Below are positions 19,265 through 61,240 of a stretch of 64,000 nt of DNA, piece after piece. A program made the translations under genes and the position numbers. The notes beneath the pieces were generated by a model. That model was not told the DNA's origin, did not search any database, and was given only the letters and a program-made list of their open reading frames with translations. The DNA is from Thermoanaerobaculia bacterium (GTDB taxonomy: Bacteria > Acidobacteriota > Thermoanaerobaculia > UBA5066): contig CAVRAY010000002.1 in NCBI GenBank assembly GCA_963719225.1, positions 128,001-192,000 of the forward strand, given 5' to 3'. Position 1 is the first letter of the stretch. The number at the start of each line of letters is the position of its first letter.

Positions 19265-20715
19265 GGGTGACTTTCCTCCGACGCCGCGAGCGCGTCGACC
19301 ACGCGCTCGAGCTTCATCCCGCGACTCCCCTTGACGAGGACGGTGTCGCCCGGCTGAAGGATTGGGCGAAGCCAGGCGAGGAGCGGCTCGATCTCGGTGA
19401 AGTGGGCCGAGGGATGAGAGGAAGAAGAAGAGAATTCCTTGAAAGTAAGAGAGGAACGCGGCCCGAAGAATGCCGCCAGCTCGACGGATTCCGCGGCCTT
19501 CCGTCCCAGCTTTCGATGCTCTTCCTCTTCGGAGGCTCCGAGCTCGAGCATGTCGCCCAGCACCGCGATCGCGCGGGCGGACCCGGGCACGCTCAGGCTC
19601 GCGAGGGTCGTGAGCGCAGCCTCCATGGACGCAGGCGAGGCGTTGTAGCAATCGTCGAGGATCGTGATCCCGCCCGCGCCCGCCACCAAGCGGGAGCGGT
19701 GCGAATAAGGCTTCGCAGCGGCAAGCCCGCGGGAGATTTCCTCGAATGTATAAGAGAGCGCGAGAGCCGTGGCCGCCGCGGCTGCCGCATTCATGGCGTT
19801 GTGCTCCCCCACGAACCCCAGCCTGACGGTGACCTTGCGGAGCTGTAGGTCGCCGCCGAGACGTCCACGCCCCGGATGGCCGTCCCACTCTTCCCCTTCC
19901 AAGCAGATTTCCTGCCCTTGAATTCCGAGAGGCGTTACCCGCACAAGACGGACGTCCGCAACGGCGCTCTTGCCAAAGAAGATCTTCTTCACGCCGCTCG
20001 CCACCCGCTCCGCCTGCGTCAGGCAGCGCGCGTCGTCCGCGTTCACGACCGCGACGGAGCCCGGAAGGAGGCCGCGGTAGAGCTCGCCCTCGGCTTCCGC
20101 GACGCCGTCGAGGTCCTTCAGGAACTCGAGGTGCTCGGCCGCCACGAGCGTCAGGACACCGGCGTCCGGGCGGGCCATCGCGGTGATCCGCTGGAGCTCG
20201 CCCGGCGTCGACATGCCGAGCTCCACGACCGCGGCCTTATGCTCGCTTCGGAGGGAGAGAAGCGTCAGCGGGACTCCGATCTCGTTGTTGAAGTTACCTT
20301 CCGTCGCGAGCGCGGGACCGCGCGTCCTGAGGATCGCCGCGACCATCTCCTTCGTGGTGGTCTTGCCGGCCGATCCGCCGACCGCCGCGACGGGAATCGA
20401 GAACCGGCTTCGGTGGAAAGCCGCGAGAGCCCCGAGCGCCCGGAGCGTGTCGTCGACCTCGAAGAGCGGAAGTCCCCAAACGCGCGGCGTTCCCTTCCTC
20501 ACGACCGCCGCGACCGCGCCTTTGGCGGCCGCCTCGCCGAGAAACGCGTGCCCGTCGAACCGGTCGCCCTTCAGCGCGACGTAGAGCGCGCCCGGAAGCA
20601 GCGTGCGCGTGTCGATCGAAACGGACGAAAACGCAGGTGGAAAAGCGTCGGCCCGGGAAGCAGCCGTCGCGCGCGCGACGTCCTCCGCCGTGAAGACTCC
20701 CTCAGTCGAGGCCGT
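19261..20715 (-). CDS. murF: UDP-N-acetylmuramoyl-tripeptide--D-alanyl-D-alanine ligase
   Basis: SIDTRTL...ALKGDRFDGHAF lies upstream of the ORF-track start. Also GSAGKTTTKE, GNFNNEIGVPLTL, DDCYNASPASM, GDMLELG and KGSRGMKLE. Proposed start is ACG at 20715, 7 nt after AGGAG. Confidence 0.92.
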   Translation of the reverse strand, partial: TASTEGVFTAEDVARATAASRADAFPPAFSSVSIDTRTLLPGALYVALKGDRFDGHAFLGEAAAKGAVAAVVRKGTPRVWGLPLFEVDDTLRALGALAAFHRSRFSIPVAAVGGSAGKTTTKEMVAAILRTRGPALATEGNFNNEIGVPLTLLSLRSEHKAAVVELGMSTPGELQRITAMARPDAGVLTLVAAEHLEFLKDLDGVAEAEGELYRGLLPGSVAVVNADDARCLTQAERVASGVKKIFFGKSAVADVRLVRVTPLGIQGQEICLEGEEWDGHPGRGRLGGDLQLRKVTVRLGFVGEHNAMNAAAAAATALALSYTFEEISRGLAAAKPYSHRSRLVAGAGGITILDDCYNASPASMEAALTTLASLSVPGSARAIAVLGDMLELGASEEEEHRKLGRKAAESVELAAFFGPRSSLTFKEFSSSSSHPSAHFTEIEPLLAWLRPILQPGDTVLVKGSRGMKLERVVDALAASEESHP

Positions 20716-21814
20716 AGCGCGTCTCCTGGAGGATGTAGTCCACGACCGCGGGCAGGCTCTGCGTCTTCTCGTAGACCTCGCGCTGGCGGTCCGCGCCCGT
20801 GCGGCGCGCCAGGATCGTGTGGACGTACTCGATCTCCTTCCGCGACCCGAGGTCGTCCAGGACGTCGTCCACGAACGCGAGAAGCTCCCCGAGGAGCGAC
20901 GCGAACGGAACCTCCTCTTTCTTCCCGAAGTCGATCAGGGGGCCGTCGATGCCGAAGCGCGCCGCGCGTGTCTTGTTCTCGCTGATGAGGGCCCGCGGGT
21001 AGAGCCGGAAGGTCAGGTTCCCGTCGTAGAGCTTCCAGAGCTTTACGGTGATCGCCTGGAAAAGCGCCGCCAGGCAGATCGTCTCGTCCACGCGCATCGG
21101 GATGTCGCAGATCCGGTACTCGAGGGTCGGGAAGAACGGGTGCGGCCGCACGTCCCACCAGATCTTCTTCGGGTTGTCGATGCAGTTCGTCTTCACGAGC
21201 GTCTCGACGTAGCTCATGTAATCGGCCCACGAGAAATACTGGTCCGGAATTCCCGTGCGCGGGAACCGTTCGAACACCTTCGCGCGGAAGCTCTTCCACC
21301 CCGTGTCGCGTCCCGACCAGAACGGCGAGTTCGTCGAGAGCGCGAAGACGTGCGGAAGAAAGTACCGAACTGCGTTCTGCAGCGCGATCCGGGTCTCGTC
21401 GTGCTCGACGGCGACATGCACGTGGAGCCCGAAGATCAGGTTGCCGCGCGCGACATCCCCGAGGTCGTAGAGGATCCTCTCGTAGCGCGGGTTCTCGGTG
21501 ATCGGCACTTCCGACCAGTTCGTGAAGGGATGCGTTCCGGCGGCGCCGATCGCGAGGCCCGCCGAGCCCGTGAGCGCCACGAGCTCCCGCCTGAGGTTCG
21601 TCACGTCGGCACGCGCCTCGGCGATGTCCTTGCAGATTCCCGTTCCCACCTCGACGACGGACTGGTGGAATTCGCGCTTGATCTTGTCCTTGAGGCGCAG
21701 CTCGCCGGCCGCGAAGAGCTCCTGGATGTGGGCCTTGAGCGCGCGCGTCCCGGGATCGATGATCTGGAACTCCTCCTCGATCCCGAGGGTGAACGACGGG
21801 CGCGGCGCTCCCAC
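20702..21814 (-). CDS. ybdK: Carboxylate-amine ligase (GCS2/YbdK family glutamate--cysteine ligase-like)
   Basis: FTLGIEEEFQ, AAGTHPF, IFGLHVHV, STNSPFW, FPRTGIP, IWWDVRPHPFFPTLEYRICD, ENKTRAARFG. Confidence 0.9.
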   Translation of the reverse strand: MGAPRPSFTLGIEEEFQIIDPGTRALKAHIQELFAAGELRLKDKIKREFHQSVVEVGTGICKDIAEARADVTNLRRELVALTGSAGLAIGAAGTHPFTNWSEVPITENPRYERILYDLGDVARGNLIFGLHVHVAVEHDETRIALQNAVRYFLPHVFALSTNSPFWSGRDTGWKSFRAKVFERFPRTGIPDQYFSWADYMSYVETLVKTNCIDNPKKIWWDVRPHPFFPTLEYRICDIPMRVDETICLAALFQAITVKLWKLYDGNLTFRLYPRALISENKTRAARFGIDGPLIDFGKKEEVPFASLLGELLAFVDDVLDDLGSRKEIEYVHTILARRTGADRQREVYEKTQSLPAVVDYILQETRYGLD

Positions 21815-21840
21815 GGCTCAGCCCGCGCGGTCCGCGGCTC

Positions 21841-22803
21841 TCATTTCGCGATGCCCAGGAGCTTCGGCCAGGTGCCGAGGCTCTCGAAGGGGCGCGGCTG
21901 ACGAACGCGGTCGAGGAGGAACTCGGCCATCGCGCGGACGATCCAGTCGAAGTTCTCCTGGCCCACGGAGGCGACGTCGGCGTCCGGCGCGCAGTTCATG
22001 AAGTCGATCGCATAGGGAACGCCGTCCCTCACGGCGAACTCCACGGTGTTCAGGTCGTAGCCCAGGGCCTCGCACAGGGCAATGGATCCCTCCGTCACGC
22101 GCTGGACGATCGCCGCGGGGACGGCCCGGCCCCGCGCCGCCTCGTAGCGCAGGTGGTGCGGCTCCTTCGGGGCGTATCCCATGATGCGCACGCGCTTTCG
22201 CCCCACGACGTAGCAGCGATAGTAGTCCGTGAACTCGATCGCCTCCTGCGCCATCATCTCGAGGTCACGGGTCTCTTCGTACGCGGAGAAGAACGCGTCC
22301 GGCGTGTCGCACTTGTAGACGTCCTTCCAGCCTCCGCCGTTCGCGGGCTTCAGGAAGATCGGGAACCCGAGGTACGAGAAGACACGGTCCCAGTCCACCA
22401 TTTCCAGGTTCCGGAAGGACTTCTCGGTCGTGTTCGGCGGGCGGTGCTTGTGCGGGAGGAGGACCGTCTTCGGCACGGCGACGCCGGCCGCGAGCGCGAC
22501 GACGTTGTCGAAGAACTTGTCGTCCGCCGACCACCAGATCGGGTTGTTCACGACGTCGACGCCGCGCGCGACGGCGCACTTCAGGAACGTCCGGTAGAAG
22601 GGAACTTCGTGGCTGATGCGGTCGAGGATGACGGAATCCTCGAAGGACTGCTCCTGCGTCAGATGGGAAATCTTCACGGGGCCGGACTCGATCGCTTCTC
22701 CGCTCTTTTTCGCGAGCGTGTTGATCTCGTTCATCAGGGCCCAGGGAAACGTGTCCTCCATGCCGAACAGAATCCCGATCCGCTTGTTCGCCACCTCCGT
22801 CAC
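21841..22803 (-). CDS. ATP-grasp ligase (RimK/glutathione synthetase-like)
   Basis: ADDKFF, VPKTVLLP, FPIFLKPANGGGWKDVYK, QEAIEF, VEFAVRDGVPYAIDFMN; GTG start after GAGG. Confidence 0.85.
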   Translation of the reverse strand: MTEVANKRIGILFGMEDTFPWALMNEINTLAKKSGEAIESGPVKISHLTQEQSFEDSVILDRISHEVPFYRTFLKCAVARGVDVVNNPIWWSADDKFFDNVVALAAGVAVPKTVLLPHKHRPPNTTEKSFRNLEMVDWDRVFSYLGFPIFLKPANGGGWKDVYKCDTPDAFFSAYEETRDLEMMAQEAIEFTDYYRCYVVGRKRVRIMGYAPKEPHHLRYEAARGRAVPAAIVQRVTEGSIALCEALGYDLNTVEFAVRDGVPYAIDFMNCAPDADVASVGQENFDWIVRAMAEFLLDRVRQPRPFESLGTWPKLLGIAK

Positions 22804-22889
22804 CGATTCCTCCCCGAGCGGCGCTCGCCGCGGGCGCATCCTAACGGAGCGGCGAAGAGAAGCGCAAAGGACTTGGTTAGACTCCCTCG

Positions 22890-23594
22890 ATGAAACGCGA
22901 GTACGGATCCTGGAAGAGCGCCGCGCTTTCGAGGCCGATGGAGTTTCTCTGGTTCGGCGACCGCGGGCGGCCCGTCCTCTTCTTCCCGACGTCGATGGGG
23001 CGCTTCTATCAGAACGAGGACTTCGGCCTCACGGGGGCGCTCGCCGACAAGGTGGACGCCGGATGGCTGCAGCTCGTCTGCGTCGACTCCGTGGACGCCG
23101 AGAGCTGGTACAACAAGACGATCCCCCCCGCCGCGCGCGCGCGTCGCCACGACGCCTACGACCGCTACTTTCGAGACGAGATGCTGCCGTACATCACGGC
23201 GCGGACCGGCGGGAACATCGTGACCGTCGGCGCGTCCTTCGGGGCGTACCACGCCGCGAACGTAGCGGCGCGGTATCCCGGCGTCGTCACGAAGGCGATC
23301 TGCTTCTCCGGCCTCTACGACGTGTTCCAGTTCCTCGACGGCTACTGGGACCAGACCTGCTACTACCACTCGCCGATGGCCTACATCGCGAACATGGACG
23401 AAGCCTGGAAAGAGAAGCTTCGCGAGGTCGAATGGGTCGTCGCGACCGGCGAGAACGATTCGCTCGTGCGCCAGAACCGGGAGTTCGCGGCGCTCCTCGA
23501 AAGGCAGGGGCAGCGCGTTCAGGCGGAGTTCTGGCCCGGCGTCTTCGGCCACGACTGGCCGTTCTGGAAAGAGCACATCCGGAGATTCATCTGA
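22890..23594 (+). CDS. Putative esterase (alpha/beta hydrolase)
   Basis: FPTSMGRFYQNED, nucleophile elbow GASFG, GHDWPFW. Confidence 0.88.
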   Translation: MKREYGSWKSAALSRPMEFLWFGDRGRPVLFFPTSMGRFYQNEDFGLTGALADKVDAGWLQLVCVDSVDAESWYNKTIPPAARARRHDAYDRYFRDEMLPYITARTGGNIVTVGASFGAYHAANVAARYPGVVTKAICFSGLYDVFQFLDGYWDQTCYYHSPMAYIANMDEAWKEKLREVEWVVATGENDSLVRQNREFAALLERQGQRVQAEFWPGVFGHDWPFWKEHIRRFI

Positions 23595-24388
23595 CTCGTG
23601 GCGTTCCGATCGCCTTTTTCGCGAGCCTCGTCTGGATCGGCGCGGCCTCCGTGCAGGCGGCAGGCCTTGAAGCCGCGGACGGTTATTCCTACCCGTATAC
23701 CGTACGGTCCGACCGTCTGATTGTCGAGCAGGAAGGTTCCGTCGCCGTTTCCGGCCCGAGGCGCCGGATCGAGAGGAGAACGGATGGTGTCGCGATCGTG
23801 ACGACGTGGCCGGACTCGAGCCGTTGTTTTTCGTTCGACGTCCAGCGCCGGACGTTCTGGGAATGTTCCGAGGCGGCGGCGCCGGCCTCGCCGGGCCCCC
23901 TGCCCGAAGTCTCCCGGCTGACGGTGCGCGAGATCCCTCCTCCCGAGGACGCTGCCGGCGGAGCCGCGGGCCTGAAGCGCCGCGCCCGGCTTCTCTCCTG
24001 CCGCCTCACGACGCCGCTGCCGGGAGGCGCGAAGAACCCCGCGGCGCGCTTTCTGAAGGCGTACGTCGCGGACCTCAGCGTCGAGCTCGTCGTCTCGGAG
24101 GTGGAGGCGCCGGGTCTCGTCGTGCCGTGGCGGCTGCACGCGAATCTCTTCGGGCAGCATCTCGCGCCGGTCGAGGACGCGCTCGCGGCCTTCCTTGCCT
24201 CCCGCGAAGGGAGGCCCGTGCGCCTGCGCGTGCGTACGACCCGCACGGCCGAGGGCGGTACCGCCGTTCGCGACGAAGTCGAGGTCGTCTTCGGGGAATT
24301 CCGTCCTCTTCCGGCGGACCCGGCGTTCTTCGAGGTGCCGCGGGGCTACCGGCACGAGAAGCCGGTCGTCGGCATTCCCGCGCTCTGA
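23591..24388 (+). CDS. Hypothetical exported protein
   Basis: 3' part of ORF 22616-24388. Signal-like TRGVPIAFFASLVWIGAASVQA; C-terminal DPAFFEVPRGY resembles DUF4412-type tails. Proposed CTG start overlaps the esterase stop. Confidence 0.6.
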   Translation: MTRGVPIAFFASLVWIGAASVQAAGLEAADGYSYPYTVRSDRLIVEQEGSVAVSGPRRRIERRTDGVAIVTTWPDSSRCFSFDVQRRTFWECSEAAAPASPGPLPEVSRLTVREIPPPEDAAGGAAGLKRRARLLSCRLTTPLPGGAKNPAARFLKAYVADLSVELVVSEVEAPGLVVPWRLHANLFGQHLAPVEDALAAFLASREGRPVRLRVRTTRTAEGGTAVRDEVEVVFGEFRPLPADPAFFEVPRGYRHEKPVVGIPAL

Positions 24389-24443
24389 CGCAGGGCACTC
24401 TCTTTCCGCGTAGCGGCGCGTTGGGAAAGAAAGCCGTGAATCC

Positions 24444-26360
24444 CTAGGACAGGATCTCCCGGACTTTGCTCGCGAGGATCCCGGGCGTGAACGGCTTCTG
24501 AAGAAAGGCATGCCCCGACCCGAGCTGGCCGCTGCGGACCACGCCGTCGTCCGTGTAGCCGGACATGAACAGGACTCGGACGCCCGGTCGCATCTCCTCC
24601 ACGCGGGACGCGAGCTCCGTTCCCGGCATGTCGGGCATGACGAGATCGGTCAGGAGCAGGTTGATCGGCCCCTCCTCCGCTCGGACTCGTTCCAGTGCGT
24701 CCTTCCCGCTGCCCGCGTCGATCACGCGGTAGCCGCGTCCCTCGAGAACCCGTTTCGCGAGAGCGCGGATCGCCGGCTCGTCCTCCACGACCAGGATCGT
24801 CCCGGTTCCGGAAATGGAAGGGGAGTCTGCCGCGCGCGGGACGCCTACCTCGGCGGCCTCTTCCAACCTTGGAAGGTACACCTTGAAGATCGTTCCCTTT
24901 CCCGGTTCGCTGTACACCCAGATGTTCCCGCCCGACTGCTTGACGATGCCGTACACCGTCGAGAGTCCGAGCCCCGTTCCCCTCCCCTTTTCCTTCGTCG
25001 TGTAGAAGGGCTCGAAGATGTGCGCCTGGGTCTCGGCATTCATGCCCGTGCCGGTGTCGCTCACGGCCACCATCACGTAGCGGCCCGGCTGGACCGTGAC
25101 GTGGCGCTGAGCGTAAAACTCGTCGAGATCGGCGTTGGCCGTTTCGATCGTCAGTCTGCCTCCGTTCGGCATGGCATCGCGGGCGTTGAGGACCAGGTTC
25201 ATGATCACCTGCTCGAGCTGCCCGTAGTCCGCACGGACCCTTCCCGCAAGCGCATCGAGCTTCGTCGCCAGCTCCAAATCCTCTCCGATCAGGCGCCGCA
25301 GCATCTTCTCCAGGTTACGAACCAGCTCGTTGACGTCGAGAACGACCGGCTCGAGCACCTGCTTGCGGCTGAAAGCGAGGAGCTGCTGAGTCAGCGCGGT
25401 CGCGCGCTCCGAAGCGCGGATCATTTCATCGAGCTCCTCGCGGCCGGGGTCGCCGGGCGCCAAACGTGAGGACAGAAGGCTTCCGTATCCGAGGATCGCC
25501 GTCAGGAGGTTGTTGAAGTCGTGCGCGACGCCGCCCGCGAGCCGCCCGACGGCCTCCATCTTCTGCGAGAGGCGAAGCCGCTCCTCGAGAACCTTCTGCG
25601 AAGAAAGGTCCACGATGTGGGCAATGCAGGCTCCTTCCGAGGCCGGCAGCATCGCGACGCCGATCAGGACCGGCACGCGCTTCCCGTCCTTTCGAAGGAG
25701 CTCCTTCTCCCAGGAAGACGCGACGCCCGTTCGCTGCAGCTCTTCGACCGCCTTCCTGTCTCGCTCGAGATGCTCAGGCGGGGTCAGCTCGTCCCACTTG
25801 ATCCTTCCCGCAAGGAGCTCCTCTCGGGTGTACCCCAGCATGTCCAGGTAGGCGTCGTTGGCCTCGAGCGTGCGGCCGGCGAGATCCGCGATCACGATCC
25901 CGATCGTGTGCGAATCGAAGAGCCGCCGAAACCGCTCCTCGCTACGCCGCATCCCCTCTTCGGCCTTTCGTCTTCCCCGCCGCTGCGCGGCCTGCGCGAG
26001 CTCTCGCCCGACCGCTGGAGCGAGGCGCGTCAGGCTTCCTTTCAGAATGAAGTCCTGCGCGCCCGCCCTCATCCCCTCGACCGCGACATCCTCTCCGACA
26101 GTCCCCGAGACGATGATGAAAGGCAGGTCGAGCCCGGACCTCTGGAGCGTCGCGAGAGCGGCCGGCGCGCTGAAAGCCGGCAAGTTGTAGTCGGAGATGA
26201 CGAAGTCCCAGGACTCCTTTTCGAGCGCGGCCTTCATCGCCTCGGCCGTCTCGACACGCTTCGAGGACACGTCGTAGCCGACGCGCTCGAGCTCGCGCGC
26301 CAGGAGGCGCGCGTCGTCTTCCGAGTCCTCGACGATGAGGACCTTGAGCGCTTCCGCCAT
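24444..26360 (-). CDS. Hybrid sensor histidine kinase (REC-PAS-HisKA-HATPase-REC)
   Basis: LIVEDSEDD, PAS region, GGVAHDFNNLL, NLVLNARDAM, GTGLGLS, C-terminal REC with LLTDLVMP and KPF. Confidence 0.93.
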   Translation of the reverse strand: MAEALKVLIVEDSEDDARLLARELERVGYDVSSKRVETAEAMKAALEKESWDFVISDYNLPAFSAPAALATLQRSGLDLPFIIVSGTVGEDVAVEGMRAGAQDFILKGSLTRLAPAVGRELAQAAQRRGRRKAEEGMRRSEERFRRLFDSHTIGIVIADLAGRTLEANDAYLDMLGYTREELLAGRIKWDELTPPEHLERDRKAVEELQRTGVASSWEKELLRKDGKRVPVLIGVAMLPASEGACIAHIVDLSSQKVLEERLRLSQKMEAVGRLAGGVAHDFNNLLTAILGYGSLLSSRLAPGDPGREELDEMIRASERATALTQQLLAFSRKQVLEPVVLDVNELVRNLEKMLRRLIGEDLELATKLDALAGRVRADYGQLEQVIMNLVLNARDAMPNGGRLTIETANADLDEFYAQRHVTVQPGRYVMVAVSDTGTGMNAETQAHIFEPFYTTKEKGRGTGLGLSTVYGIVKQSGGNIWVYSEPGKGTIFKVYLPRLEEAAEVGVPRAADSPSISGTGTILVVEDEPAIRALAKRVLEGRGYRVIDAGSGKDALERVRAEEGPINLLLTDLVMPDMPGTELASRVEEMRPGVRVLFMSGYTDDGVVRSGQLGSGHAFLQKPFTPGILASKVREILS

Positions 26361-26809: not shown

Positions 26810-26819
26810 GTCTCCCCTC

Positions 26820-28031: not shown

Positions 28032-28051
28032 GCATTCCCAGTATCGCCCCG

Positions 28052-37785: not shown

Positions 37786-39131
37786 TCCTTTTCCTCCTTG
37801 AGAGCGTCCGGATTCCAGCCCTTTGGAGCCGTCCACGCCCGCGCCGAGAAGAGCGCGGAGAGGGCGCGCCCGACCAGCGGGCTTCTCGTCCGGGCCCAGA
37901 AAGCGTCCACGACGCGCGCCACCTCGGCCGGAGCGGAGGCCGGCGCCGCGAGACGCGCGAGCGAGAGCAGTCCGGCGGGCGCTTCGCTTCTGACTCTCTC
38001 CCAGGGCTCCCCGAGCGCGGCTTCCTCCGCGGGCGAAAGCGGCGTCACGCCGGAGAGGGAAAGCCGTCCGGAGACGACGGCGAAGAGGAGCGGCAGGTCG
38101 CGAAGGACGGGAACGGCCGTCTCGAACTTGAACGTCGTGAACGGCGCGCGGGAACCGTCCCGCGCGTTTCCGAGAAGCGTGACGGGACGCGTCGCATGGC
38201 CCGCGTTCGCGATGGCGCTCCAGACGGCGGCCACGGGCCAGAGCGGAAGGGAGAGGGCGAGAGCGACGAGCCCGAGTCCCCGGCTCGACGCCGAGGACGG
38301 CTTCTTCGGGGCGGAAGGCAGCCGATCCGTCAAGAAGCTCGTCGTGTCCGAAGCCGCATCCACGACGAGGTTGCCCGAGACGAGGACCCTCTCGAGGGCG
38401 ACGCCGGGCGGAATCGCCGTGCGCGGCAGGACGCTCACCGCCGAAAGCCGCGCGCCGGAAAGGACGACGGCTTCCTCGGCCACCGTGGTTCCTTCGAGGA
38501 GCGCCGCGGACCCCTCGACGGTCGCGCGTTCCGAGATCGCGGGAGCGGCGCCCGCGGCCGTGCGGTCGGCCTTGTCGTACGACGCGGCGTCGGCGAGAAG
38601 GATCGGCCCCTCCGAGAGCGCGAGAGCCGCGAAATCAGGATCCTTCACCCACTCCGCCGAGCCAGGCTCTCTCGGAAAATCCTTTTTCTTGAGCGCTCCG
38701 GGCAGGAGCCGCCAGAGTCCCGCGGGGCGGCCGCCGAGGAGCCCCGCGACCACGGGGCCGCGCACGTCGTCCACCCTGGCGAGGAACTCGCCGATGAGGG
38801 CGTGGGCACCGACGTCGCCGCGCACGACGACCGTCTCGCCGTCGAGCCGCGGCTCGAGACGCCGCAGCACGTCGCCGGGAGTCTCGTCGTCCTCGCGTCG
38901 CACGATCTCGAGCGCGATGCCCCACCGGATGCCCTTGCCGAAGCGGCGCTCGATCTCCCCCGCCCGCGGGCCGACGACGAGGAGAGCCGACCGCCGCCCG
39001 GCGCGGACGAGCGCCTCGAGCGCGTGCTCGAGCGCGGGGATCCCGCCGAGCGGCAGGAGCGCGGGGACGGTGCGCCCGCCGAGAGCGCCGAAAGAGGAGC
39101 CGTCGCGGTCGGCGAAGAGGACAGTCGTCAT
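37782..39131 (-). CDS. Degenerate NTP-transferase-like / hexapeptide / sugar-transferase-like fusion protein
   Basis: PALLPLGGIPALEH...GKGIRWGIAL (nucleotidyltransferase fold, lacking GxGTR); short LbH-like stretch; ALSLPLWP and RDLPLLFAVVSGRLSLSGVTP (Bac_transf-like). Confidence 0.65.
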   Translation of the reverse strand: MTTVLFADRDGSSFGALGGRTVPALLPLGGIPALEHALEALVRAGRRSALLVVGPRAGEIERRFGKGIRWGIALEIVRREDDETPGDVLRRLEPRLDGETVVVRGDVGAHALIGEFLARVDDVRGPVVAGLLGGRPAGLWRLLPGALKKKDFPREPGSAEWVKDPDFAALALSEGPILLADAASYDKADRTAAGAAPAISERATVEGSAALLEGTTVAEEAVVLSGARLSAVSVLPRTAIPPGVALERVLVSGNLVVDAASDTTSFLTDRLPSAPKKPSSASSRGLGLVALALSLPLWPVAAVWSAIANAGHATRPVTLLGNARDGSRAPFTTFKFETAVPVLRDLPLLFAVVSGRLSLSGVTPLSPAEEAALGEPWERVRSEAPAGLLSLARLAAPASAPAEVARVVDAFWARTRSPLVGRALSALFSARAWTAPKGWNPDALKEEKE

Positions 39132-46001: not shown

Positions 46002-46086
46002 GGGAATAATCGAGAGAAGAGAAAGAGTTAGAGGGGAAGAGAAAGAAGAGGATCTTCTTAGAAAAGGGAAGAGAGGAAGAAACCAC
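46001..46086 (+). repeat. Polypurine intergenic tract containing TTCTTAGAA
   Basis: gagagaagagaaagagttagaggggaagagaaagaagaggatcTTCTTAGAAaagggaagagaggaagaaa. Confidence 0.7.
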
Positions 46087-47454
46087 TTGCGATTCCGAAA
46101 TCTCATCGCGGCCGTCGCCGTCTCACTTGCCGCTCCGCCGGCCGCCCGGGCCGTGGCCCAGCCCTCTTCCCCTTCTCAGCAGCCCCCGGCGCCCGCGAAG
46201 GCGGGCGCTCCTTCCGGCGTCCACATTCCGTTCCTCGAGGGAAAGCCCTTCGCCGAAGTCCGGAGACGCGCGAAGGCGGAAGCCAAGCCGGTCATGCTCG
46301 ACGTCGTCGCGGCGTGGTGCGGCCCGTGCAAGGTCATGGATCAGACGACCTTCTCCGACCCGGCCGTCGTGGCCTGGTCGAAGAAGAACGTCGTTCCCGC
46401 GCGCGTCGACGCGGAGAAGGGCGAAGGGCGCCGCATCGCGGCGCGCTATCAGTCCTTTTCGTACCCCACCGTGCTTTTCCTGGACGCGGACGGAAACGAG
46501 ATCGATCGCCTCGTCGGCGCCTTCGGGCCGGCCGATTTCCAGCGCGCGTCGGAGGCCATCCTCGCCGGCAAGACTCCGGTCCTCCAGGGGCTCGCGAAGC
46601 TCAAGGCGTCCTGGAACCCCGACGAGGCGCTCTCGATCGCGAGCGCGCTCACGGCGCGGCGCGATCTCCCGCGACTCAGGCCCCTCGTCCTTCGGATCGT
46701 GAGCGACGAAGGCGACCTGAGCCGGCCGGAAATCCTCCAGCTCTTCCTGCAGCTCGTGGCCGTCGAGACCCTGCAGGGCGACCAATACGCCGAGACGGCC
46801 GATCTCATCGCGACCTTTCTTCCAAAGCTCGGCTCGGATCCGCGGCGCGCCTTCCTCGCGGCCGCGCTCGTGGCCGGCCTCGGGAGGCGGGGCGACGTGA
46901 CGTCGGCGCGCGCAGTGGCCCAGGAGACGCTCAACGCGCTCGGCGAGTCCTCGCCATTCGTGGTCGACGTCGTCGCGGCGCTCGGCGTTGCCGAGCGGCA
47001 GGCCGGCAACGGGCCGCAGGCGCTCGCCGCGTTTCAGCGCGCCGCATCGCTCGCCGAGAAGAACGGCGCCGCCGGAGGGACGCGCGTCGAGAGGCAGCTC
47101 GACCTCGCCGAAGCGCTCGCGTCGAGCGGAAAGCTGGACGAGGCGAAGAAGGCCTACCTCGGCGCGATCGCGGTCGGGCAGCTCGACACGCAGCTCTCCA
47201 CCCGGGCAGCGCGCGCCGCGCTCGCGGCGAAGGACTTCCCCGAAGCCCTCAAGCAGGCGCGCCGCGCCGTCGAGCTCTCGAACGGCGAGGACGCGGCCGC
47301 GCAGGCCGCGCTCGCGGCGGCGCTGAGCGCGACCGGCGACCGTGCGGGCGCTGCGGCGGCCCTGAAAAAGGCCTCGGAGATCGACCCTCGCAACGTCGAG
47401 TACCGCGCGACGACGCCCGGGCCCGCAAAGAAGAAGTCCGCAAAGGCTTCCTGA
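46087..47454 (+). CDS. Exported thioredoxin-family protein with TPR repeats
   Basis: Signal peptide, WCGPC, YPTVLFLDADG, then Ala-rich TPR-like helices. Confidence 0.85.
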   Translation: MRFRNLIAAVAVSLAAPPAARAVAQPSSPSQQPPAPAKAGAPSGVHIPFLEGKPFAEVRRRAKAEAKPVMLDVVAAWCGPCKVMDQTTFSDPAVVAWSKKNVVPARVDAEKGEGRRIAARYQSFSYPTVLFLDADGNEIDRLVGAFGPADFQRASEAILAGKTPVLQGLAKLKASWNPDEALSIASALTARRDLPRLRPLVLRIVSDEGDLSRPEILQLFLQLVAVETLQGDQYAETADLIATFLPKLGSDPRRAFLAAALVAGLGRRGDVTSARAVAQETLNALGESSPFVVDVVAALGVAERQAGNGPQALAAFQRAASLAEKNGAAGGTRVERQLDLAEALASSGKLDEAKKAYLGAIAVGQLDTQLSTRAARAALAAKDFPEALKQARRAVELSNGEDAAAQAALAAALSATGDRAGAAAALKKASEIDPRNVEYRATTPGPAKKKSAKAS

Positions 47455-50258: not shown

Positions 50259-50329
50259 GCCCGCGCGTTCCCGATCACGCCGCCAGGGCACAGGTTTTCC
50301 ACAGGCGATTCCAACCCTTATGCACCCCG

Positions 50330-50349: not shown

Positions 50350-50356
50350 TTGTTTC

Positions 50357-52548: not shown

Positions 52549-52552
52549 CCGC

Positions 52553-54919
52553 TCAGCCCGGCGAGAGGTTCGCGTAGCGCGCCACGAACTTCTTGCGGCC
52601 CGCACGGTCGAAGTAGACGGTCAGCTTTTCGGCGTCGCCGGAGCCCTCGATCGTCAGGACGACGCCCGGACCGTAGTCCGGATGGCGCACCTTCGAGCCC
52701 CGCCGGAAGCCGGAGGCCGTGGGAGGCGGCGGCGTCCGCCGCATGACGGGTCTGACGGGCGTCAGGCTGCGCGCCGGGAAGCGCGAAGAGGGGGATGAAG
52801 ATTTCCGCCCCACCTCCTGGGATTCGTTTTCGTAGTCGGGAAACAGGGATCCGCCGCGCCCGCCGCCGAAGCCGCGTCCCGGGCCGAAGCCCCGCTCACG
52901 CGCGCCGCCTCTCTCTCCACCTTCTAAGAAATCCCCCGTTCCCCCCGTCCTTCCCCTTCCGAAACCAGAAGTCAGATCTTCCCGCTCGAGCACCGCCTCC
53001 GGGATCGCCGAAAGAAAAGGCGACGGCTCGCGGCTCATCCACTCGCCACGGACCATCCGACGGAGGACGTAGGAGAGCGTGAGGCGGTCCTTCGCGCGTG
53101 TCATGCCGACGTACGCGAGTCGGCGCTCCTCCTCGAACTGGTCGTCGTCGTCGCGCGAGGAGGCGTGGGGAAGAGAGCCCTCTTCGAACCCCGCGAGGAA
53201 CACCTCGTCGAACTCGAGGCCCTTCGCCGCGTGGAGCGTGATGAGGAGGATGCCCTTCTTCTCGTCGGCTTCGTCCGCATCGGCGCGCAGCGTCACGGCG
53301 TCGAGGAACCCCGCGACGGAAGGGTCGTCGCCTTCCCCGCCGAAGGAGGTCGTGCGCTCGTGGTCGCGGGCCGCGGCGAGGAGCTCGTCCAGATTCTCGC
53401 GGCGCGCCTCGTCCTGCGGATCCAGGGAGCTCTCGTAGAGCTTCAGGAGGCCCGTTTCCTCGAGCGCAAACGCGACCGCGGCGCCGGCGACGTTCTCCCC
53501 CGCCGAGCCGAAGTCGCGCAGCTTCGCGACGAGGTCCCGAAACTCGGCGAGCGCTTTCTTCGCGCGCTCCGTGAGACTTTCGGGGAGCGCGTCGAGGACC
53601 TCGAGAAGAGGGACGCCGCGCTCGGACGCCGCGGCCTCGACGGCCTCCAGCGTCGCCGCCCCCACGCCGCGCGCCGGGACGTTCACGACCCTCCGGAAGG
53701 ACACGTCGTCGGACGGGTTGTTCGCGAGGCGCAGGTACGCGAGCGCGTCCTTGATCTCGGCCCTCTCGTAGAACTTGGTCCCGCCGACGAGGATGTAGGG
53801 CATGTTCGAGCGCAGGAGCTCGTCCTCGAACGGCCGGGATTGCGCGTTCGTGCGGAAGAGGACGGCGACCTCGGCCAGAGGTCTCGCGCGGCGCGCGGCC
53901 GCGATCCGGGAGACGACCTCGCGCGCCTCGTCGCGCTCCTCGTCGAAGACGGCGAGGCGCACGTTCCCGCCGCCCGACTTCGTCGCCTTGAGCGTCTTGC
54001 CGAGGCGGCGGCGGTTCTCGGCGACGACGGCTCCCGCGGCCTTCAGGATCGGCGCCGTCGAACGGTAGTTGCGCTCGAGGCGGACCGTCCTCGCCGTGGG
54101 GAACTCGCGCGCGAACTCCAGGATGTTCGACACGTCGGCGCCGCGCCAGCGATAGATCGACTGGTCCTCGTCGCCCACCACGAAGAGGTTCCCGGTCTCG
54201 CCGGCGATGAGGCACACGAGCTTCGCCTGGACGCGGTTCGTGTCCTGGTATTCATCCACGAGCAGGTGCCGGATGCTCCGCCGGAGGAGCTCGCGAACGC
54301 CGTCGTGCTTCGCGACGAGGCGGGTCGAGAGGACGAGGAGGTCGTCGAAGTCGAGGGCCTTCGACGCGCGCAGGGATCTCTCGTACGCACGCGCGATGTC
54401 CGCGAGGCGGGAGCCCAGGAAGTCGCCGAAGCGGCGCGGGAAGTCCTCCGGCTGGATCCCCTCGTTCTTGGCCTGCGAGATGCGCGACTGGATCTGCCGA
54501 GGCGTGGCTGACTTCTCGGGCAGCGCGACCTCCTTCATCGCGCGCTTCACGACCGCGAGCTGGTCGTCCGAGTCGAAGACGACGAACCCCTTCGGCACGC
54601 CCGCTTCCTCCGGGAAGCGCCGAAGGAGCCGCACCCCCCACGCGTGGAACGTCCCCACGAAAGAGCGCGGCCGCTCGGTGCCCAGGAGCGCGGCGACACG
54701 GTCTTTCATCTCGCCCGCGGCCTTGTTCGTGAAGGTGACGGCGACGACCGATTCCTGCGGCACGCCGTGCGCCACGACCCAGGCGAGCCGGCGCGTCAGG
54801 ACGCGCGTCTTCCCCGATCCCGCGCCCGCGAGGACGAGGAGCGGCCCTTCGCCGTGCGACACGGCGGCGGCCTGTTCGGGATTGAGGCCTTCGAGAAGAT
54901 CTTCCGGGCGGGCGACCAA
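52553..54919 (-). CDS. pcrA: ATP-dependent DNA helicase PcrA/UvrD
   Basis: LNPEQ, AGAGSGKTRVLT, VTFTNKAA, DEYQDTN, VGDEDQSIY, LERNYRS, TLHAAKGLEF, EERRLAYVGMTRA, C-terminal Tudor-like VRHPDYG. Start is TTG 54919 or ATG 54955. Confidence 0.93.
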   Translation of the reverse strand: MVARPEDLLEGLNPEQAAAVSHGEGPLLVLAGAGSGKTRVLTRRLAWVVAHGVPQESVVAVTFTNKAAGEMKDRVAALLGTERPRSFVGTFHAWGVRLLRRFPEEAGVPKGFVVFDSDDQLAVVKRAMKEVALPEKSATPRQIQSRISQAKNEGIQPEDFPRRFGDFLGSRLADIARAYERSLRASKALDFDDLLVLSTRLVAKHDGVRELLRRSIRHLLVDEYQDTNRVQAKLVCLIAGETGNLFVVGDEDQSIYRWRGADVSNILEFAREFPTARTVRLERNYRSTAPILKAAGAVVAENRRRLGKTLKATKSGGGNVRLAVFDEERDEAREVVSRIAAARRARPLAEVAVLFRTNAQSRPFEDELLRSNMPYILVGGTKFYERAEIKDALAYLRLANNPSDDVSFRRVVNVPARGVGAATLEAVEAAASERGVPLLEVLDALPESLTERAKKALAEFRDLVAKLRDFGSAGENVAGAAVAFALEETGLLKLYESSLDPQDEARRENLDELLAAARDHERTTSFGGEGDDPSVAGFLDAVTLRADADEADEKKGILLITLHAAKGLEFDEVFLAGFEEGSLPHASSRDDDDQFEEERRLAYVGMTRAKDRLTLSYVLRRMVRGEWMSREPSPFLSAIPEAVLEREDLTSGFGRGRTGGTGDFLEGGERGGARERGFGPGRGFGGGRGGSLFPDYENESQEVGRKSSSPSSRFPARSLTPVRPVMRRTPPPPTASGFRRGSKVRHPDYGPGVVLTIEGSGDAEKLTVYFDRAGRKKFVARYANLSPG

Positions 54920-54974
54920 GGGGAGCGATGGTAGCGCAGCGCGTGGGCTTAACATGGAAAGGAACGAGGACGTC

Positions 54975-55358: not shown

Positions 55359-55412
55359 CGCGATTGTACGAAAGGTATTCGCCAAACCGACCATTGCTCT
55401 AGGGGGATCTCG

Positions 55413-56454: not shown

Positions 56455-56490
56455 CGCGCCCGCCGCGCGGTGCGGCATGATGTCGCGCCG

Positions 56491-57969
56491 ATGCCGTTCG
56501 TCCTCGCCCTCGACCAGGGCACGACCAGCTCGCGCGCGCTCGTCTTCGACGAGCGCGGCGCCGTGCGCGGGATGGCCCAGCAGGAGCTCCGGCAGATCTA
56601 TCCCGAGCCCGGATGGGTCGAGCACGACCCGACGGAGATCTGGGCGACGCAGTCGGGCGTGATGCACGAGGCGCTCGCGAAGGCGGGCCTCACGGGCCGC
56701 GACGTGGCGGCGATCGGCATCACGAACCAGCGCGAGACGACGCTCCTCTGGGAGCGCGCGACCTCCCGTCCCCTCGCGAACGCGATCGTCTGGCAGGACC
56801 GGAGGACCGCGGCCGACTGCGACGCGCTCCGCGCGGCCGGCCACGAGGCGACGTTCGCCGCGAAGACGGGCCTCGTCCTCGACCCTTATTTCTCCGGCAC
56901 GAAGCTGAAGTGGCTCCTCGACCACGTGCCTCTCGCGCGGGCGCGCGCCGCGCGGGGCGAGCTCGCTTTCGGCACGGTCGACTCGTGGCTCGTCTGGAAG
57001 CTCACGAACGGAGCCGTGCACGTGACCGACGCCTCGAATGCGAGCCGGACGCTCCTCTACGACATCCATGCCGGAACCTGGGACGACGAGCTCCTGGCCC
57101 TTCTCGACATCCCCAAGGAGGTGCTGCCGCGCGTCGTGCCTTCTTCGGGTGTCGTCGCGACGGCGGCTCTCGGCGGCGTGAAAGTCCCGATCGCGGGGAT
57201 CGCCGGCGATCAGCAGGCGGCCCTCTTCGGACAGTCCTGCGACCGGCCGGGCCTCGCGAAGAACACGTACGGGACGGGCTGTTTCCTCCTCCTCAACACG
57301 GGAGCGCAGGCCGTCGCCTCGAAGAACCGCCTGCTCACGACCGTCGCGTGGGACCTCGGCAGGGGCCGCACGTTCGCCCTCGAGGGGAGCGTCTTCATCG
57401 GCGGCGCCGCCGTGCAGTGGTTGAGGGACGGGCTGAAGCTCATCCCCAGAACCGCCGACGTCGAGGCGCTCGCCGCGAGCGAGAAAGACAACGGCGGCGT
57501 CTTCATGGTGCCGGCCTTCGCGGGACTCGGCGCGCCGCACTGGGATGCCTACGCGCGAGGCGCCGTCTTCGGGCTCACGCGTGGCTCGACGGCCGGCCAT
57601 CTCGCGCGCGCGGTCCTCGAGTCGATCGCCTTCCAGAGCGCCGACGTCCTCCTCGCGATGGAGAAGGACGCGGGCCTCGCGCTCACGGAGCTCCGCGTCG
57701 ACGGCGGCGCCACCGAAAACAATCTTCTGATGCAGTTCCAGTCCGATCTCCTCGGCGTCCCCGTCGTGAGGCCCGAGGTCCTCGAGACGACCGCCCTCGG
57801 CGCCGCGTATCTCGCCGGGCTCGCCGTCGGCACCTGGAAGGACACGGACGAGATCCGCGCGAACTGGAGAGTCGCCCGCCGCTTCGAGCCGACGATGGCG
57901 CGCGCTCGTGCCGCGGAGCTGCGCGCGGGATGGGAGAAGGCCGTCAGCCGCGCGAAAGCCTGGGCCTGA
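56491..57969 (+). CDS. glpK: Glycerol kinase
   Basis: [62 protein letters not shown]. Confidence 0.96.
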
Positions 57970-57972
57970 ACC

Positions 57973-59817
57973 TCATTCCACGGTGACCGACTTCGCGAGG
58001 TTGCGGGGCTGGTCCACGTCACAGCCGCGGCGGCGGGCGACGTGGTACGCGAGGAGCTGGAGGGGCACGACGGACACGATCGGCTGAAGCGCCGGATGGA
58101 TCTTCGGCATCGTCAGGAGGGCGTCGGCGAACGTGGACACGTCCGCGTCCCCCGGGTTGACGAATGCGATGACGATGCCGTCCCGCGCCTTCGCTTCCCT
58201 CAGGTTCGAGGCGATCTTCTCGTAGAGCGCGTCGTCGGGCGCGAGGCCGACGACGGGAAGAGCGTCGTCGATGAGGGCGATCGGGCCGTGCTTCATCTCG
58301 CCCCCGGGATAGCCCTCCGCGTGAAGGTACGAGATCTCCTTCAGCTTGAGCGCCCCTTCCAGGGCGATCGGGTAATGCGCGCCGCGCCCGAGGAAAAGGA
58401 CGTCCCGCGCCTTTTCGAGACGGCGGGCGACCTTCTCGATCTCGCTCTCGAGGGCGAGCGCCTCGTGGAGAACGCCGGGGAGTCGGGCCAGGCCAGCGAG
58501 AAATGCCCCGTCGACCGGGACCTCCTCGGTCGTGCGCGCGCCTTTCACGTAGTGCGCAAAGAGGGCGAGCGCGACGAGCTGCGTCGTGAAAGCCTTCGTA
58601 GACGCGACGCCGATCTCCGGTCCCGCGTGCGTCGCGATCACTCCGTCCACCAGTCGCGCGATCGCCGAGCCCGGCACGTTCACGAGGCCGACCGTGCGCG
58701 CTCCCAGGCGCCGGGCCTCCTTGAGCGCCGCCACGGTGTCCGCCGTCTCGCCGGACTGCGAGATGCCGAGGACGAGGGTCTTCTGGTCCACGAGCGGCGA
58801 GCGGTAACGGAACTCGGAAGCGTAATCGACGTCGGCGGGAATACGGGCGATTTCCTCCAGCAGGAACTTTCCGACGAGGCCCGCGTGCCAGCTCGTCCCG
58901 CAGGCCACGATCTGCACGCGGTCGATCTGCGCGAGGAGCGCGCGCGAAACGCCCATCTCCGCTTCGTTGAAGAGGCCGGTCTCCAAAGAGAGCTTGTTGC
59001 CGATCGTCTCGACGACGACCGTGGGCTGCTCGGCGATCTCCTTGGCCATGTAGTGCGGGTAGCCGCCCTTCTCGGCCGAGACGGCGTCCCACGGGACGCG
59101 CTGGGTGAGCCGCTCGTGCGGCGTCCCGTCGAACCCTGTCACGGTCACGCTGGATGCGGTCACGCGCGCGAGGTCCCCGTCCTCGAGGAAGATCAGGTCG
59201 CGCGTGTACGCGAGCAGCGCGGTCGCGTCCGAGGCGACGAAATTCTCGCCCGTTCCGAGCCCGAGGACGATCGGCGGCCCCCATTTGAGGGCATAGAGGA
59301 CGCCCGGCTCGTCCGCCGAGAAGAGGACGAGCGCGAACATGCCCTTGAAGGAAGCCGCCGTCTTCCGGACGATCTCGCCGAAAGGGGTCGTCGGGTCGGC
59401 CTTCTGCGCCGCCCCGAGCGCCTGAGCGACGACCTCGGTGTCGGTCTCCGAAAGGAACCGAACGCCCTCCTTCTGGAGCCGCTGTTTCAAGGGCAGGAAA
59501 TTCTCGATGATCCCGTTGTGAATGACGACGACGCGGCCGGAAGCGTCGCGATGCGGGTGCGCGTTCTCCTCGGAGGGGCGGCCGTGCGTGGCCCAGCGCG
59601 TGTGCCCGACGCCGAACCGGCCGGGCGGCGGATCCTGCGCGATCTTGTCCGTGAGGTTGCCGAGCTTGCCCTCGCTACGGGCGACGCGCACGACGCCGTC
59701 GTTCCCGAGGACCGCGATGCCCGCCGAGTCGTAGCCTCGGTACTCGAGGCGCTTCAGGCCGTCGAGGAGAACCGGCGTCGCGTCGCGGCTCCCGACGTAC
59801 CCGACGATGCCGCACAC
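57973..59817 (-). CDS. glmS: Glutamine--fructose-6-phosphate transaminase
   Basis: MCGIVG, LEYRGYDSAG, GHTRWATHG, SQSGETAD, VASTKAF, DQPRNLAKSVTVE. Confidence 0.97.
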   Translation of the reverse strand: MCGIVGYVGSRDATPVLLDGLKRLEYRGYDSAGIAVLGNDGVVRVARSEGKLGNLTDKIAQDPPPGRFGVGHTRWATHGRPSEENAHPHRDASGRVVVIHNGIIENFLPLKQRLQKEGVRFLSETDTEVVAQALGAAQKADPTTPFGEIVRKTAASFKGMFALVLFSADEPGVLYALKWGPPIVLGLGTGENFVASDATALLAYTRDLIFLEDGDLARVTASSVTVTGFDGTPHERLTQRVPWDAVSAEKGGYPHYMAKEIAEQPTVVVETIGNKLSLETGLFNEAEMGVSRALLAQIDRVQIVACGTSWHAGLVGKFLLEEIARIPADVDYASEFRYRSPLVDQKTLVLGISQSGETADTVAALKEARRLGARTVGLVNVPGSAIARLVDGVIATHAGPEIGVASTKAFTTQLVALALFAHYVKGARTTEEVPVDGAFLAGLARLPGVLHEALALESEIEKVARRLEKARDVLFLGRGAHYPIALEGALKLKEISYLHAEGYPGGEMKHGPIALIDDALPVVGLAPDDALYEKIASNLREAKARDGIVIAFVNPGDADVSTFADALLTMPKIHPALQPIVSVVPLQLLAYHVARRRGCDVDQPRNLAKSVTVE

Positions 59818-59818
59818 C

Positions 59819-61240
59819 TCAGGTCTTCTTCCCGCCGCTCTTCTTCTCGCGGTACCGCGCCCCGCCCTCGGGCACGTTCTTCTGCGGCACGCGGGAGAGG
59901 GCGAGCGCGTCCTTCTCGACGTCCACCGTCACGGTCGTGCCCGCGGCGACGATCGCGCCGTCGCCGATCGTGACCGGAGCGACGAGCTGCACGTCCGAGC
60001 CGACGAAGACGTCCTTGCCGATCGTCGTGCGGTTCTTCGCGAAGCCGTCGTAGTTGCAGGTGATCACGCCCGCGCCCACGTTCGTGCGCTCGCCGATCTC
60101 CGTGTCGCCGAGATACGTCAGGTGGTTCGCCTTGACGCCTTTTCTCAGCACGGCTTTCTTCGTCTCCACGAAGTTCCCGACGTGAACACCCTCGGCGAGG
60201 TCCGTCCCTTCGCGCAGGCGTGCGAACGGTCCCACGACGGCGCCGTCGCCGACGGCGGCCGATTCGATCACGCAGTACGGCCTCACCGTCACGTTCTTCC
60301 CGAAGACCGAGTCCTTGACGACCGTCCCCTGGCCGATCACGGTGCCGGTGCCGACGCGCGTCTTCCCGAGGAGCGTCACGAACGGCTCGAGCTCCGTGTC
60401 GGGTTCGAGGACGACGGTATCGTCGAGCGTTACGGTCTCGGGCCGCAGGATCGTCGTCCCGGTGCGCATCGCCTCGGATGCCTTGCGGTCCCGGAGGATC
60501 CGCTCGACGGTCGCGAGGTCCTCGCGAGAGTTGACACCGAGAGCGGAGGAGGGGTCGCCGGAGACGGTGACCACCTTTCGCTTCGCCTTCAGCGCGAGGG
60601 AAAGGACGTCCGTGAGATAGAACTCGGATTGAAGATTCTTAGAAGTGAGAAGAGGGAGGGATTTGTCCAGGAACGCTCGATCAAACACATAGGTCCCGGT
60701 GTTGATCTCCGCGATCTTCTTCTCATTCGCAGAAGAATCCTTCTCCTCTCTTATCCGAAGAAATCTCTTCTTCCTGTCCCGCACGATCCGCCCATAGCCC
60801 GTGGGGTTCGCGAGCGTGGCCGTCAGGACGGCGACGGCCGCCTTCTTGTCCTCGTTCAGCGCGTCGACGAGGCTCTTCACCGCGTCGGCCGTCAGGAGCG
60901 GGACGTCGCCCGAGAGGACGACGACCGTCTTCGCCTTCCCGAAGGCGCCGGCCGCAGCCGCGACCCGGACGGCATCGCCCGTTCCCCGCGGCGGATCCTG
61001 GATGGCGATCCGGACGCCCGCGTGCTTCGCCTTCAGATGCGCGACGACCGTCACATTACCCTTCGAAGAGTCTTCCTTCGGAATGATCGCCACCACCGCT
61101 GCGGCCTCGCCCGCGACGGAGACAGCGGTGTCGAGCGCGCGGTCGAGAAGCGATCGGCCCGCGGCCTCGTGCAGGACCTTCGGCCGTTCGGAGCTCATCC
61201 TCACGCCGCGGCCCGCAGCGAGGAGGACGACGACGGTCAC
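59819..61240 (-). CDS. glmU: Bifunctional UDP-GlcNAc pyrophosphorylase / glucosamine-1-phosphate acetyltransferase
   Basis: LAAGRGVRMSSERPKVLH, GTGDAV, GYGRIVR, EFYLTD, GNFVETK, HLTYLGD, TCNYDG. Confidence 0.96.
   Translation of the reverse strand: MTVVVLLAAGRGVRMSSERPKVLHEAAGRSLLDRALDTAVSVAGEAAAVVAIIPKEDSSKGNVTVVAHLKAKHAGVRIAIQDPPRGTGDAVRVAAAAGAFGKAKTVVVLSGDVPLLTADAVKSLVDALNEDKKAAVAVLTATLANPTGYGRIVRDRKKRFLRIREEKDSSANEKKIAEINTGTYVFDRAFLDKSLPLLTSKNLQSEFYLTDVLSLALKAKRKVVTVSGDPSSALGVNSREDLATVERILRDRKASEAMRTGTTILRPETVTLDDTVVLEPDTELEPFVTLLGKTRVGTGTVIGQGTVVKDSVFGKNVTVRPYCVIESAAVGDGAVVGPFARLREGTDLAEGVHVGNFVETKKAVLRKGVKANHLTYLGDTEIGERTNVGAGVITCNYDGFAKNRTTIGKDVFVGSDVQLVAPVTIGDGAIVAAGTTVTVDVEKDALALSRVPQKNVPEGGARYREKKSGGKKT

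Follow-up and report, generated by a model that had tools for sequence, protein, structure and literature searches.

A 64,000-nucleotide stretch of a Thermoanaerobaculia genome (G000, assembly GCA_963719225.1; contig C2, positions 128001-192000), hereafter the window, carries copies of the word TTCTTAGAA. We found that this word, rather than being a simple palindrome, forms the core of a longer polar site (about 30 bp), and that such sites stand in facing pairs; they are strongly enriched, favour certain spacings, are conserved at a cost to proteins, are biased toward the terminus half of the chromosome and are restricted to two genera. The motif is real and lies outside every family tested, whereas its mechanism is what we infer. 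Taken as a whole, we read it as some 350 facing pairs of polar sites bound by a putative protein, the complexes meeting or bridging, probably for chromosome anchoring or partition, and we give this reading an even chance. Selection keeps both the orientation of two sites and the distance between them at these ~350 places, in two genera and with essential genes included. The known dispersed signals are palindromes in tens of copies, replication-polarised words, uptake sequences or mobile hairpins, and the motif is none of these.

Across the genome TTCTTAGAA occurs 273 times versus the 3.7 that an order-3 Markov model predicts, and all ten genomic 9-mers with the highest enrichment are frames of it. 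In coding DNA, 157 copies were counted versus 0-3 in eight synonymous resamplings; such a genome-wide count against a codon-aware null was the check proposed in a preliminary description of the window, and the motif passed it. The 4143 genes used here were called with our own hexamer model, so their boundaries are approximate. The window by itself is marginal, with six 9-mer matches versus 2.39 expected and 6 of 100 shuffles reaching six. A site matrix trained on the motif copies yielded 822 sites at a threshold of at least 18 bits. In the reversed genome 161 positions reached this threshold versus 826, and therefore about 650-800 sites are real. A composition artefact is rejected. An assembly artefact is also ruled out, since all 28 genomes of the genus carry the motif, which answers the earlier concern that the patches might coincide with low-quality assembly.

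The matrix contains 28.8 bits over 30 bp and is asymmetric in both its centre and its flanks. The consensus opens with about 20 purine-rich positions, followed by TTTCTTnGAAnG and by a tail rich in G and A that extends to +19; the sixth core base is variable (A, C, T or G). Sites in coding DNA (571 of the 822) lie on both strands and in all frames. The motif had initially been described as an interrupted palindrome; it is instead a polar word of about 30 bp, and the unit is a head-to-head pair of such words with a preferred spacing.

Pairing is evident from the strands of neighbouring sites. Among the 822 sites, neighbours within 400 bp form 325 facing, 15 diverging and 96 tandem pairs, versus 108.8 ± 9.6 facing pairs (maximum 141 in 200) after strand permutation. 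An opposite site 25-400 bp away on the 3' side was found for 562 of 688 strong sites, and on the 5' side for 31. The two mates of a pair agree at 15.61 of 29 positions (54% identity) versus 15.52 ± 0.12 for shuffled arms; being no closer than shuffled arms, each arm follows the consensus and not its partner. This independence of the arms, together with strand symmetry and polarity, argues for a protein reading duplex DNA, and on these sequence patterns the motif is very probably read by a sequence-specific protein. Each arm would be bound, as double-stranded DNA, by this putative protein.

The same data bear on whether the pairs act instead as long stems of RNA or single-stranded DNA that serve processing, termination or pausing, or else as promoters that face each other, which we regard as very unlikely. 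Either strand does read a purine-rich arm and then a pyrimidine-rich arm, and on the sense strand G.U-type mismatches slightly exceed A.C-type ones (908 vs 823), the sole result pointing to RNA. The site also partly resembles the complement of the 16S 3' end. On the other hand, mates show no covariation at their 54% identity, short loops are avoided, and a stem would be indifferent to polarity, yet 325 pairs face and 15 diverge. The fillers of 120 pairs fold no better than shuffles (z +0.04 ± 0.10; control -0.28 ± 0.11). Among 118 strongest pairs listed, 29 lie in genes, 46 between tandem, 21 between convergent and 10 between divergent genes, with 12 unresolved; given this spread, the pairs are neither promoter- nor terminator-specific, and neither context is preferred. 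As for the 16S rRNA, the sequence of its 3' end and spacer at C1:905530, GATCACCTCCTTTCTAAG, is in part similar to the site's reverse strand, which is probably a coincidence because the sixth core base varies.

Spacing within pairs was examined in two sets. For the 346 pairs of G000 itself, 16 are spaced below 60 bp, 24 at 60-72, 35 at 73-79, 164 at 80-150, 95 at 151-300 and 12 farther apart, with a mean excess past 76 of 73 bp; the median is 85 bp for intergenic and 131 bp for coding pairs. A GTDB scan for near-perfect pairs (spacing window 63-93) gave at least 118 pairs, and among the matches listed 59 of 118 are spaced 74-76 bp, 32 of them exactly 76; once orthologous loci are collapsed, 27 of 68 remain at 74-76 bp. 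We detected no 10-11 bp period after collapse of paralogues, nor in strong pairs (p 0.09-0.38), and 32 metagenome loci added no clear one. Tandem arms come as close as 21 bp. As they tolerate distances of 21-45 bp and facing arms require at least 60, something likely extends 25-30 bp past the 3' side of each site. The lower limit near 60 bp, the optimum at 76, the smooth tail and the lack of phasing are together compatible with two oriented complexes meeting along the DNA; the two would meet or bridge across the filler. We slightly favour, over a rigid loop with helical phasing, arms that direct complexes to their partner, with contact best at about 76 bp and a one-dimensional reach of about 300 bp. 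A 93-bp pair (peptide EDFLEGEE) is part of a set of paralogous Ser/Thr kinase genes, for example at C1 ~2.29-2.32 Mb, and has been amplified with them, with 15 pairs in one cluster.

A comparable distance profile is known from budding yeast. According to PMC12440816, opposed sites of the origin recognition complex (ORC) load MCM best when 70-90 bp apart and continue to do so at 300 bp, sliding explaining the decay. Like the motif, they are two asymmetric sites set head to head. The likeness is a physical analogy, as G000 encodes no MCM, has a single dnaA origin and a single dif, and bears hundreds of its pairs in genes.

Inverted arms with a preferred length also recall mobile hairpins. Rickettsia palindromic elements (RPEs) enter genes, and some arms of the motif lie on short insertions that keep the reading frame. 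Most of the strongest pairs are intergenic, with 29 of 118 in genes among the matches listed, and 76-bp fillers, orthologues still included, reach an identity of 0.39 vs 0.32 for shuffles. Inverted doublets with a sharp length mode are shared with REPINs, for which PMC3116915 gives modes at 71 and 110 bp. In contrast to REPINs and RPEs, the filler here is neither conserved nor folding, mates lack covariation, arms are built by point changes, and an extragenic hairpin unit with its RAYT is missing, as G000 has no Y1/RAYT transposase. Within genes, the fillers align as normal protein sequence and the arms arise by substitution; spacing at orthologous loci drifts through indels. For the coding pairs the mobile-element reading is thus largely refuted, and relics of a REPIN- or RPE-like hairpin of about 87 bp spread by copying are, over all pairs, a highly improbable origin.

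Arms inverted 60-300 bp apart are likewise the geometry of invertons, in which recombination at the sites would invert or excise the filler. Such fillers occur in both orientations, but here orthologous fillers align better unflipped in 110 of 121 cases, and none of ten reverse-favoured cases is a clear flip. Crossover cores are unmatched between mates, and for the glmU pair none of seven joints listed changes strand (contigs of relatives only). The site is unlike either dif arm, and Xer/dif-like sites, with dif-matching arms 6-8 bp apart, were set aside in the same way, the dif at C1:2037568 having different arms. We consider recombination sites scarcely credible here.

We next consider what the sites cost. 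In glmU, 24 of 25 genus sequences have a site at codons 180-181 and 14 of 25 have the facing arm; no site was seen in five sequences from other family genera (two of them from the weakly positive g11). The arms there use codons that the genome otherwise seldom employs, with GAT in 23 of 25 sequences (17% genome-wide), TCT in 20 (5%) and ACT in 13 (4%), and change residues, giving LTSKNSQ versus LSADNAQ or LEPTNAQ. A fifth of all TTA codons in the genome (56 of 278) fall inside sites. In orthologues from the second genus, 30 of 51 coding sites have a same-strand G000 site within 45 nt, and 27 of 30 site-bearing genes of its genome G174 also carry G000 sites, versus 86 of 1025 overall. Pairs are scarcer in the most conserved genes (1.3 vs ~7 per 100 kb). 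These observations support selection on the DNA, at the cost of rare codons and altered residues, and make the motif a natural experiment in how much protein sequence a genome gives up for a DNA signal. Selection on the DNA had been proposed from the odd codons and peptides of the window, and this part stands, since the genus as a whole retains the rare codons and the altered residues; the accompanying idea, a chromosome-level signal bound by protein, is the reading that fits best.

With hundreds of copies, 571 of the 822 sites coding and few pairs in the most conserved genes (1.3 vs 7 pairs per 100 kb), the motif would also suit a DNA uptake or packaging signal whose receptor grips two facing sites, the pairs being spread by biased uptake and recombination. 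Three island-like stretches (126, 48 and 70 kb) lack sites, and the genome encodes ComEC and a ComEA-like protein; no basic conserved pilin stood out. Uptake sequences are likewise scarce in conserved genes and foreign DNA, according to PMC2817400. The uptake signal sequences (USS) of Pasteurellaceae and the DNA uptake sequences (DUS) of Neisseriaceae share with the motif a polar, clade-specific word in hundreds of copies, strongly over-represented in coding DNA too, in all gene frames and shaping peptides; the motif differs in its facing pairs at a 76-bp optimum and in its ori-ter gradient. No uptake sequence is known to require facing pairs at such an optimum, which counts against this explanation. 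Moreover, ComEC occurs in motif-negative genomes too, uptake predicts no ori-ter gradient while one is present in intergenic DNA as well, genes without a match in the covered part of the second genus bear as many pairs as core genes, and the site-free stretches may be foreign contigs of a chimeric assembly. We judge an uptake or packaging signal unlikely.

Island-like DNA without sites is equally expected if the pairs label host DNA as self, to be spared or processed by a defence or repair machine that requires, Type III-like, two asymmetric sites in opposition. No pair-rich virus was seen either: 71 + 14 IMG/VR hits are chance matches, and GenBank phages gave nothing. Type III restriction enzymes communicate one-dimensionally between inverted asymmetric sites, which fits, but PMC3185417 also has them accepting tail-to-tail pairs and acting over kilobases. 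In addition, nuclease targets are expected to be avoided rather than enriched, and McrC was not found in the genus (Type III and ISP genes were not searched for). Self marks of this kind are quite unlikely.

The sites are also unevenly spread along the chromosome. With dnaA at 326 kb of C2 and dif at C1:2037568, density is 8-13 sites per 100 kb in the 750 kb on either side of dnaA, rising to 16-33 farther out, so that the terminus half is two to three times denser and the profile symmetric about dif. Intergenic DNA shows the gradient too (4.8, 7.7 and 9.7 per 10 kb), and in G231 and G019 sites are likewise sparser near dnaA, by eye and among the matches listed. Orientation has no replichore polarity: 248 paired sites point toward ter and 245 toward ori, with singles at 76 and 93. 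The mapping relative to ori and ter suggested at the outset thus gave a density bias toward the terminus half and no orientation skew. DnaA boxes are canonical and few, and dif is bracketed by two facing pairs. We base a chromosome-organising role on how many copies there are, on their indifference to genes and on their bias toward the terminus: pairs, at one per ~13 kb, would anchor or partition the chromosome, and a role in its architecture or segregation seems to us about as probable as its opposite. The early suggestion of chromosome organisation thus survives as to the type of signal, while the role itself is inferred only.

The gradient was computed without two kinds of sequence. C2 ~608-802 kb is a second, congeneric copy of C2 6-223 kb, window included (~75% amino-acid identity, some frameshifts; contamination 6.2%); the assembly is chimeric. 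Island-like or foreign stretches with 0-4 sites lie at C2 481-608 kb, C2 802-872 kb and C1 0-160 kb. Within the last, C1 ~56-64 kb is AT-rich, G/T-skewed low-complexity DNA that may be assembly junk.

Like matS, parS, the Noc and SlmA sites, KOPS, Chi and HIP1, the motif is a dispersed chromosome signal tolerated within genes, and the preliminary description had likened it to matS, parS and the Noc/SlmA sites. That comparison does not carry over to the site itself. The matS, Noc and SlmA sites are palindromes in tens of copies, KOPS and Chi are words polarised by replichore, and HIP1 is a short palindrome tied to a methyltransferase. The motif has a polar consensus, unlike the palindromic parS, Noc-binding sites (NBS), matS and SlmA-binding sites, and hundreds of paired copies; it lacks the replichore skew of KOPS and Chi (248 vs 245), and it is polar and paired, unlike HIP1.

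The taxonomic range is narrow. A 14-letter pattern has 62-311 copies in all 28 genomes of genus g1 and 11-54 in all eight of g11, versus 0-2 in 27 genomes from eight other genera of the family, and a 12-mer is absent from 16 genomes of two sister families. Across 251 genomes of the class a clear 9-mer excess appears only in g1, G174 and G181, so a class-wide motif is not supported for this word. In G181 (L119-L148), TTCTTAGAA lies within an unrelated, abundant REP-like composite repeat at contig ends, a repeat that breaks its assembly. The motif is thus limited to two genera within a single Thermoanaerobaculia family, where all 36 genomes carry it. In the 2.36 of 4.36 Mb of G174 available, 106 sites share the same consensus and form 32 facing and two diverging pairs. 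No other paired word emerged from a small 160-kb sample of G166, of a negative genus; the motif itself did come out of 160 kb of G000 by the same method. The unpublished genomes G025, G193 and G196 enter only as negatives, in the 12-mer, class 9-mer, second-ParB and orphan-protein surveys. Searches of the open-access literature gave no account of the motif or of such pairs in Acidobacteriota (subscription journals and supplements lay outside the search).

We then looked for the reader of the sites. The screen drew on 2.36 of the 4.36 Mb (54%) of a single positive genome, G174, which gave 1025 orthologues, 767 of them without membrane or signal features and read by eye among the matches listed; it is incomplete, as no full negative genome was compared. 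TniQ/TnsD was found in none of 31 genomes, control genomes giving no match either. One attractive candidate was the ParB of a second parA-parB that directly adjoins dif at the terminus (C1:2037568-2039524), since parS and NBS share TTTC...GAAA half sites (PMC7383237) with the motif, whose centre is 3 bp rather than 4 bp. The dif-parB distance is 137-292 bp in five of five other genomes from three families, canonical parS is located at parA, and no site lies near this ParB in negative genomes. Its GKSRV recognition helix is identical in six positive and nine negative genomes, so neither a changed helix nor a matching distribution marks it as the cognate ParB. Residue 179 is A versus T/S/C; this residue varies among ParBs (PMC7383237).

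A second candidate is an unannotated, basic orphan protein of 164 amino acids (L414, C1:3836045-3836539). By eye it has two helix-turn-helix-like repeats, a linker resembling an AT-hook (RGRP) and, at the C-terminus, a short domain. It matches no Pfam family and has 44 relatives, which among 61 class genomes occur only in families f1 and f3. No clean diagnostic residue separates the motif-negative genera, its model (predicted local distance difference test 68) gave no significant fold match (CENP-B, SETMAR and POU at E >1), and its Atlas hits stayed below 0.9. As the motif reader it is a weak lead, with little prospect of being right; apart from any link to the motif, it is a candidate for a new nucleoid protein.

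Several results weigh against paired sites bound by a protein that organises the chromosome. Of the 688 strong sites, 175 (about a quarter) lack a partner at 14 bits, and the 73-79 bp class holds only 35 of 346 pairs in G000 taken singly. A small gradient of third-position GC content, from 0.878 to 0.862 toward the terminus, parallels the ori-ter gradient of sites; because of this parallel and that with gene conservation, mutation bias or constraint may explain part of the latter. No reader was found among the candidate proteins tested. A histone fold was absent from five of five genomes, MCM gave only weak partial AAA+ cross-hits, like all 14 controls (Orc1/Cdc6 not searched), and McrC occurred in none of 11 genus genomes (Type III and ISP genes again not searched for). 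SMC and ComEC are present with and without the motif and so do not track it. The terminus ParB is not supported as reader, being present in 70 of 71 genomes of the order, motif-positive and -negative alike, and all 17 genomes of one motif-negative genus have the orphan protein too.

A bolder version of the protein reading, which we consider rather doubtful, is that the head-to-head site code loads two ring- or clamp-like complexes that meet across ~76 bp and divide the chromosome into ~13-kb units, the reader belonging to an unannotated protein family, possibly that of the orphan. If true, it would be the prokaryotic counterpart of loading from opposed sites in eukaryotic origins, or of convergent loop anchors, and a paired-site code strong enough to rewrite essential proteins. 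The 76-bp pair, alongside diverging, tandem and respaced controls, is in any case a ready bait for finding a new DNA-acting machine.

Within the window, which has no tRNA or Rfam match, exact copies of TTCTTAGAA stand at 46055 (+), 52922-52930 (-) and 60636 (+), as first reported, and the hosts named then, MurF, PcrA and GlmU, agree with the best NCBIfam matches. The site list itself was incomplete, the arms at 19738, 19897 and 46173 having been overlooked. The murF gene (19261..20502, -; TIGR01143 above cut-off) hosts three arms. An extra arm at 19425..19454 (+, 30.3 bits with the genome-trained matrix), with core TTCCTTGAA at 19435, runs antisense in murF and accounts for a copy noted earlier; its nearest facing arm is 462 bp off, the site is retained in a congeneric copy, and the odd MurF peptide FKEFSSSSSHPS is as described. 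The other two form a facing pair, with left arm 19728..19757 (+, core 19738, 25.8 bits) and right arm 19886..19915 (-, core 19897, 23.3 bits) spaced 159 bp. A weak single match in a hybrid histidine kinase gene (25680..25709, -, 17.4 bits) may be chance. Of the weaker copies suspected earlier, those at 60726, 60754 and 61062 are strong sites, while 38680 is no site (best 6.3 bits at 38669).

The next pair has its left arm in intergenic DNA after truA (46045..46074, +, core 46055, 30.8 bits) and its right arm at the start of the gene next to truA (46162..46191, -, core 46173, 16.5 bits), spaced 118 bp. The pcrA/uvrD helicase gene (52553..54919, -; best match TIGR01073, below cut-off) hosts one strong single site in its variable C-terminal linker (52911..52940, -, 35.8 bits), which reads GDFLEG and has no partner above 4 bits within 500 bp.

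Four arms lie in glmU (59819..61240, -; TIGR01173 above cut-off). The arm at 60626..60655 (+, core 60636, 24.0 bits) is antisense, encodes TSKN and reaches at least 14 bits in 14 of 25 genus sequences. It faces the arms at 60715..60744 (-, core 60726, 27.4 bits; spacing 90 bp, encoding DSSAN, 24 of 25 genus sequences having a site at this codon) and 60743..60772 (-, core 60754, 26.0 bits; a tandem extra arm, spacing 118 bp). The arm at 61051..61080 (-, core 61062, 23.4 bits) is in a GlmU loop, on a short in-frame insertion that the alignment shows to be missing in some relatives. In the contigs of a relative, the pair-spanning stretch 60540-60821 was, in two runs, of the same length and less than 85% alike, and the adjoining 802 bp ~94% alike; this stretch is possibly a recombination border. 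Upstream of glmU lies a conserved gene (61237-61917, -) with tetratricopeptide repeats and, recognised by eye, an N-terminal Myb/GcrA-like helix pattern; motif-negative genera have this gene as well.

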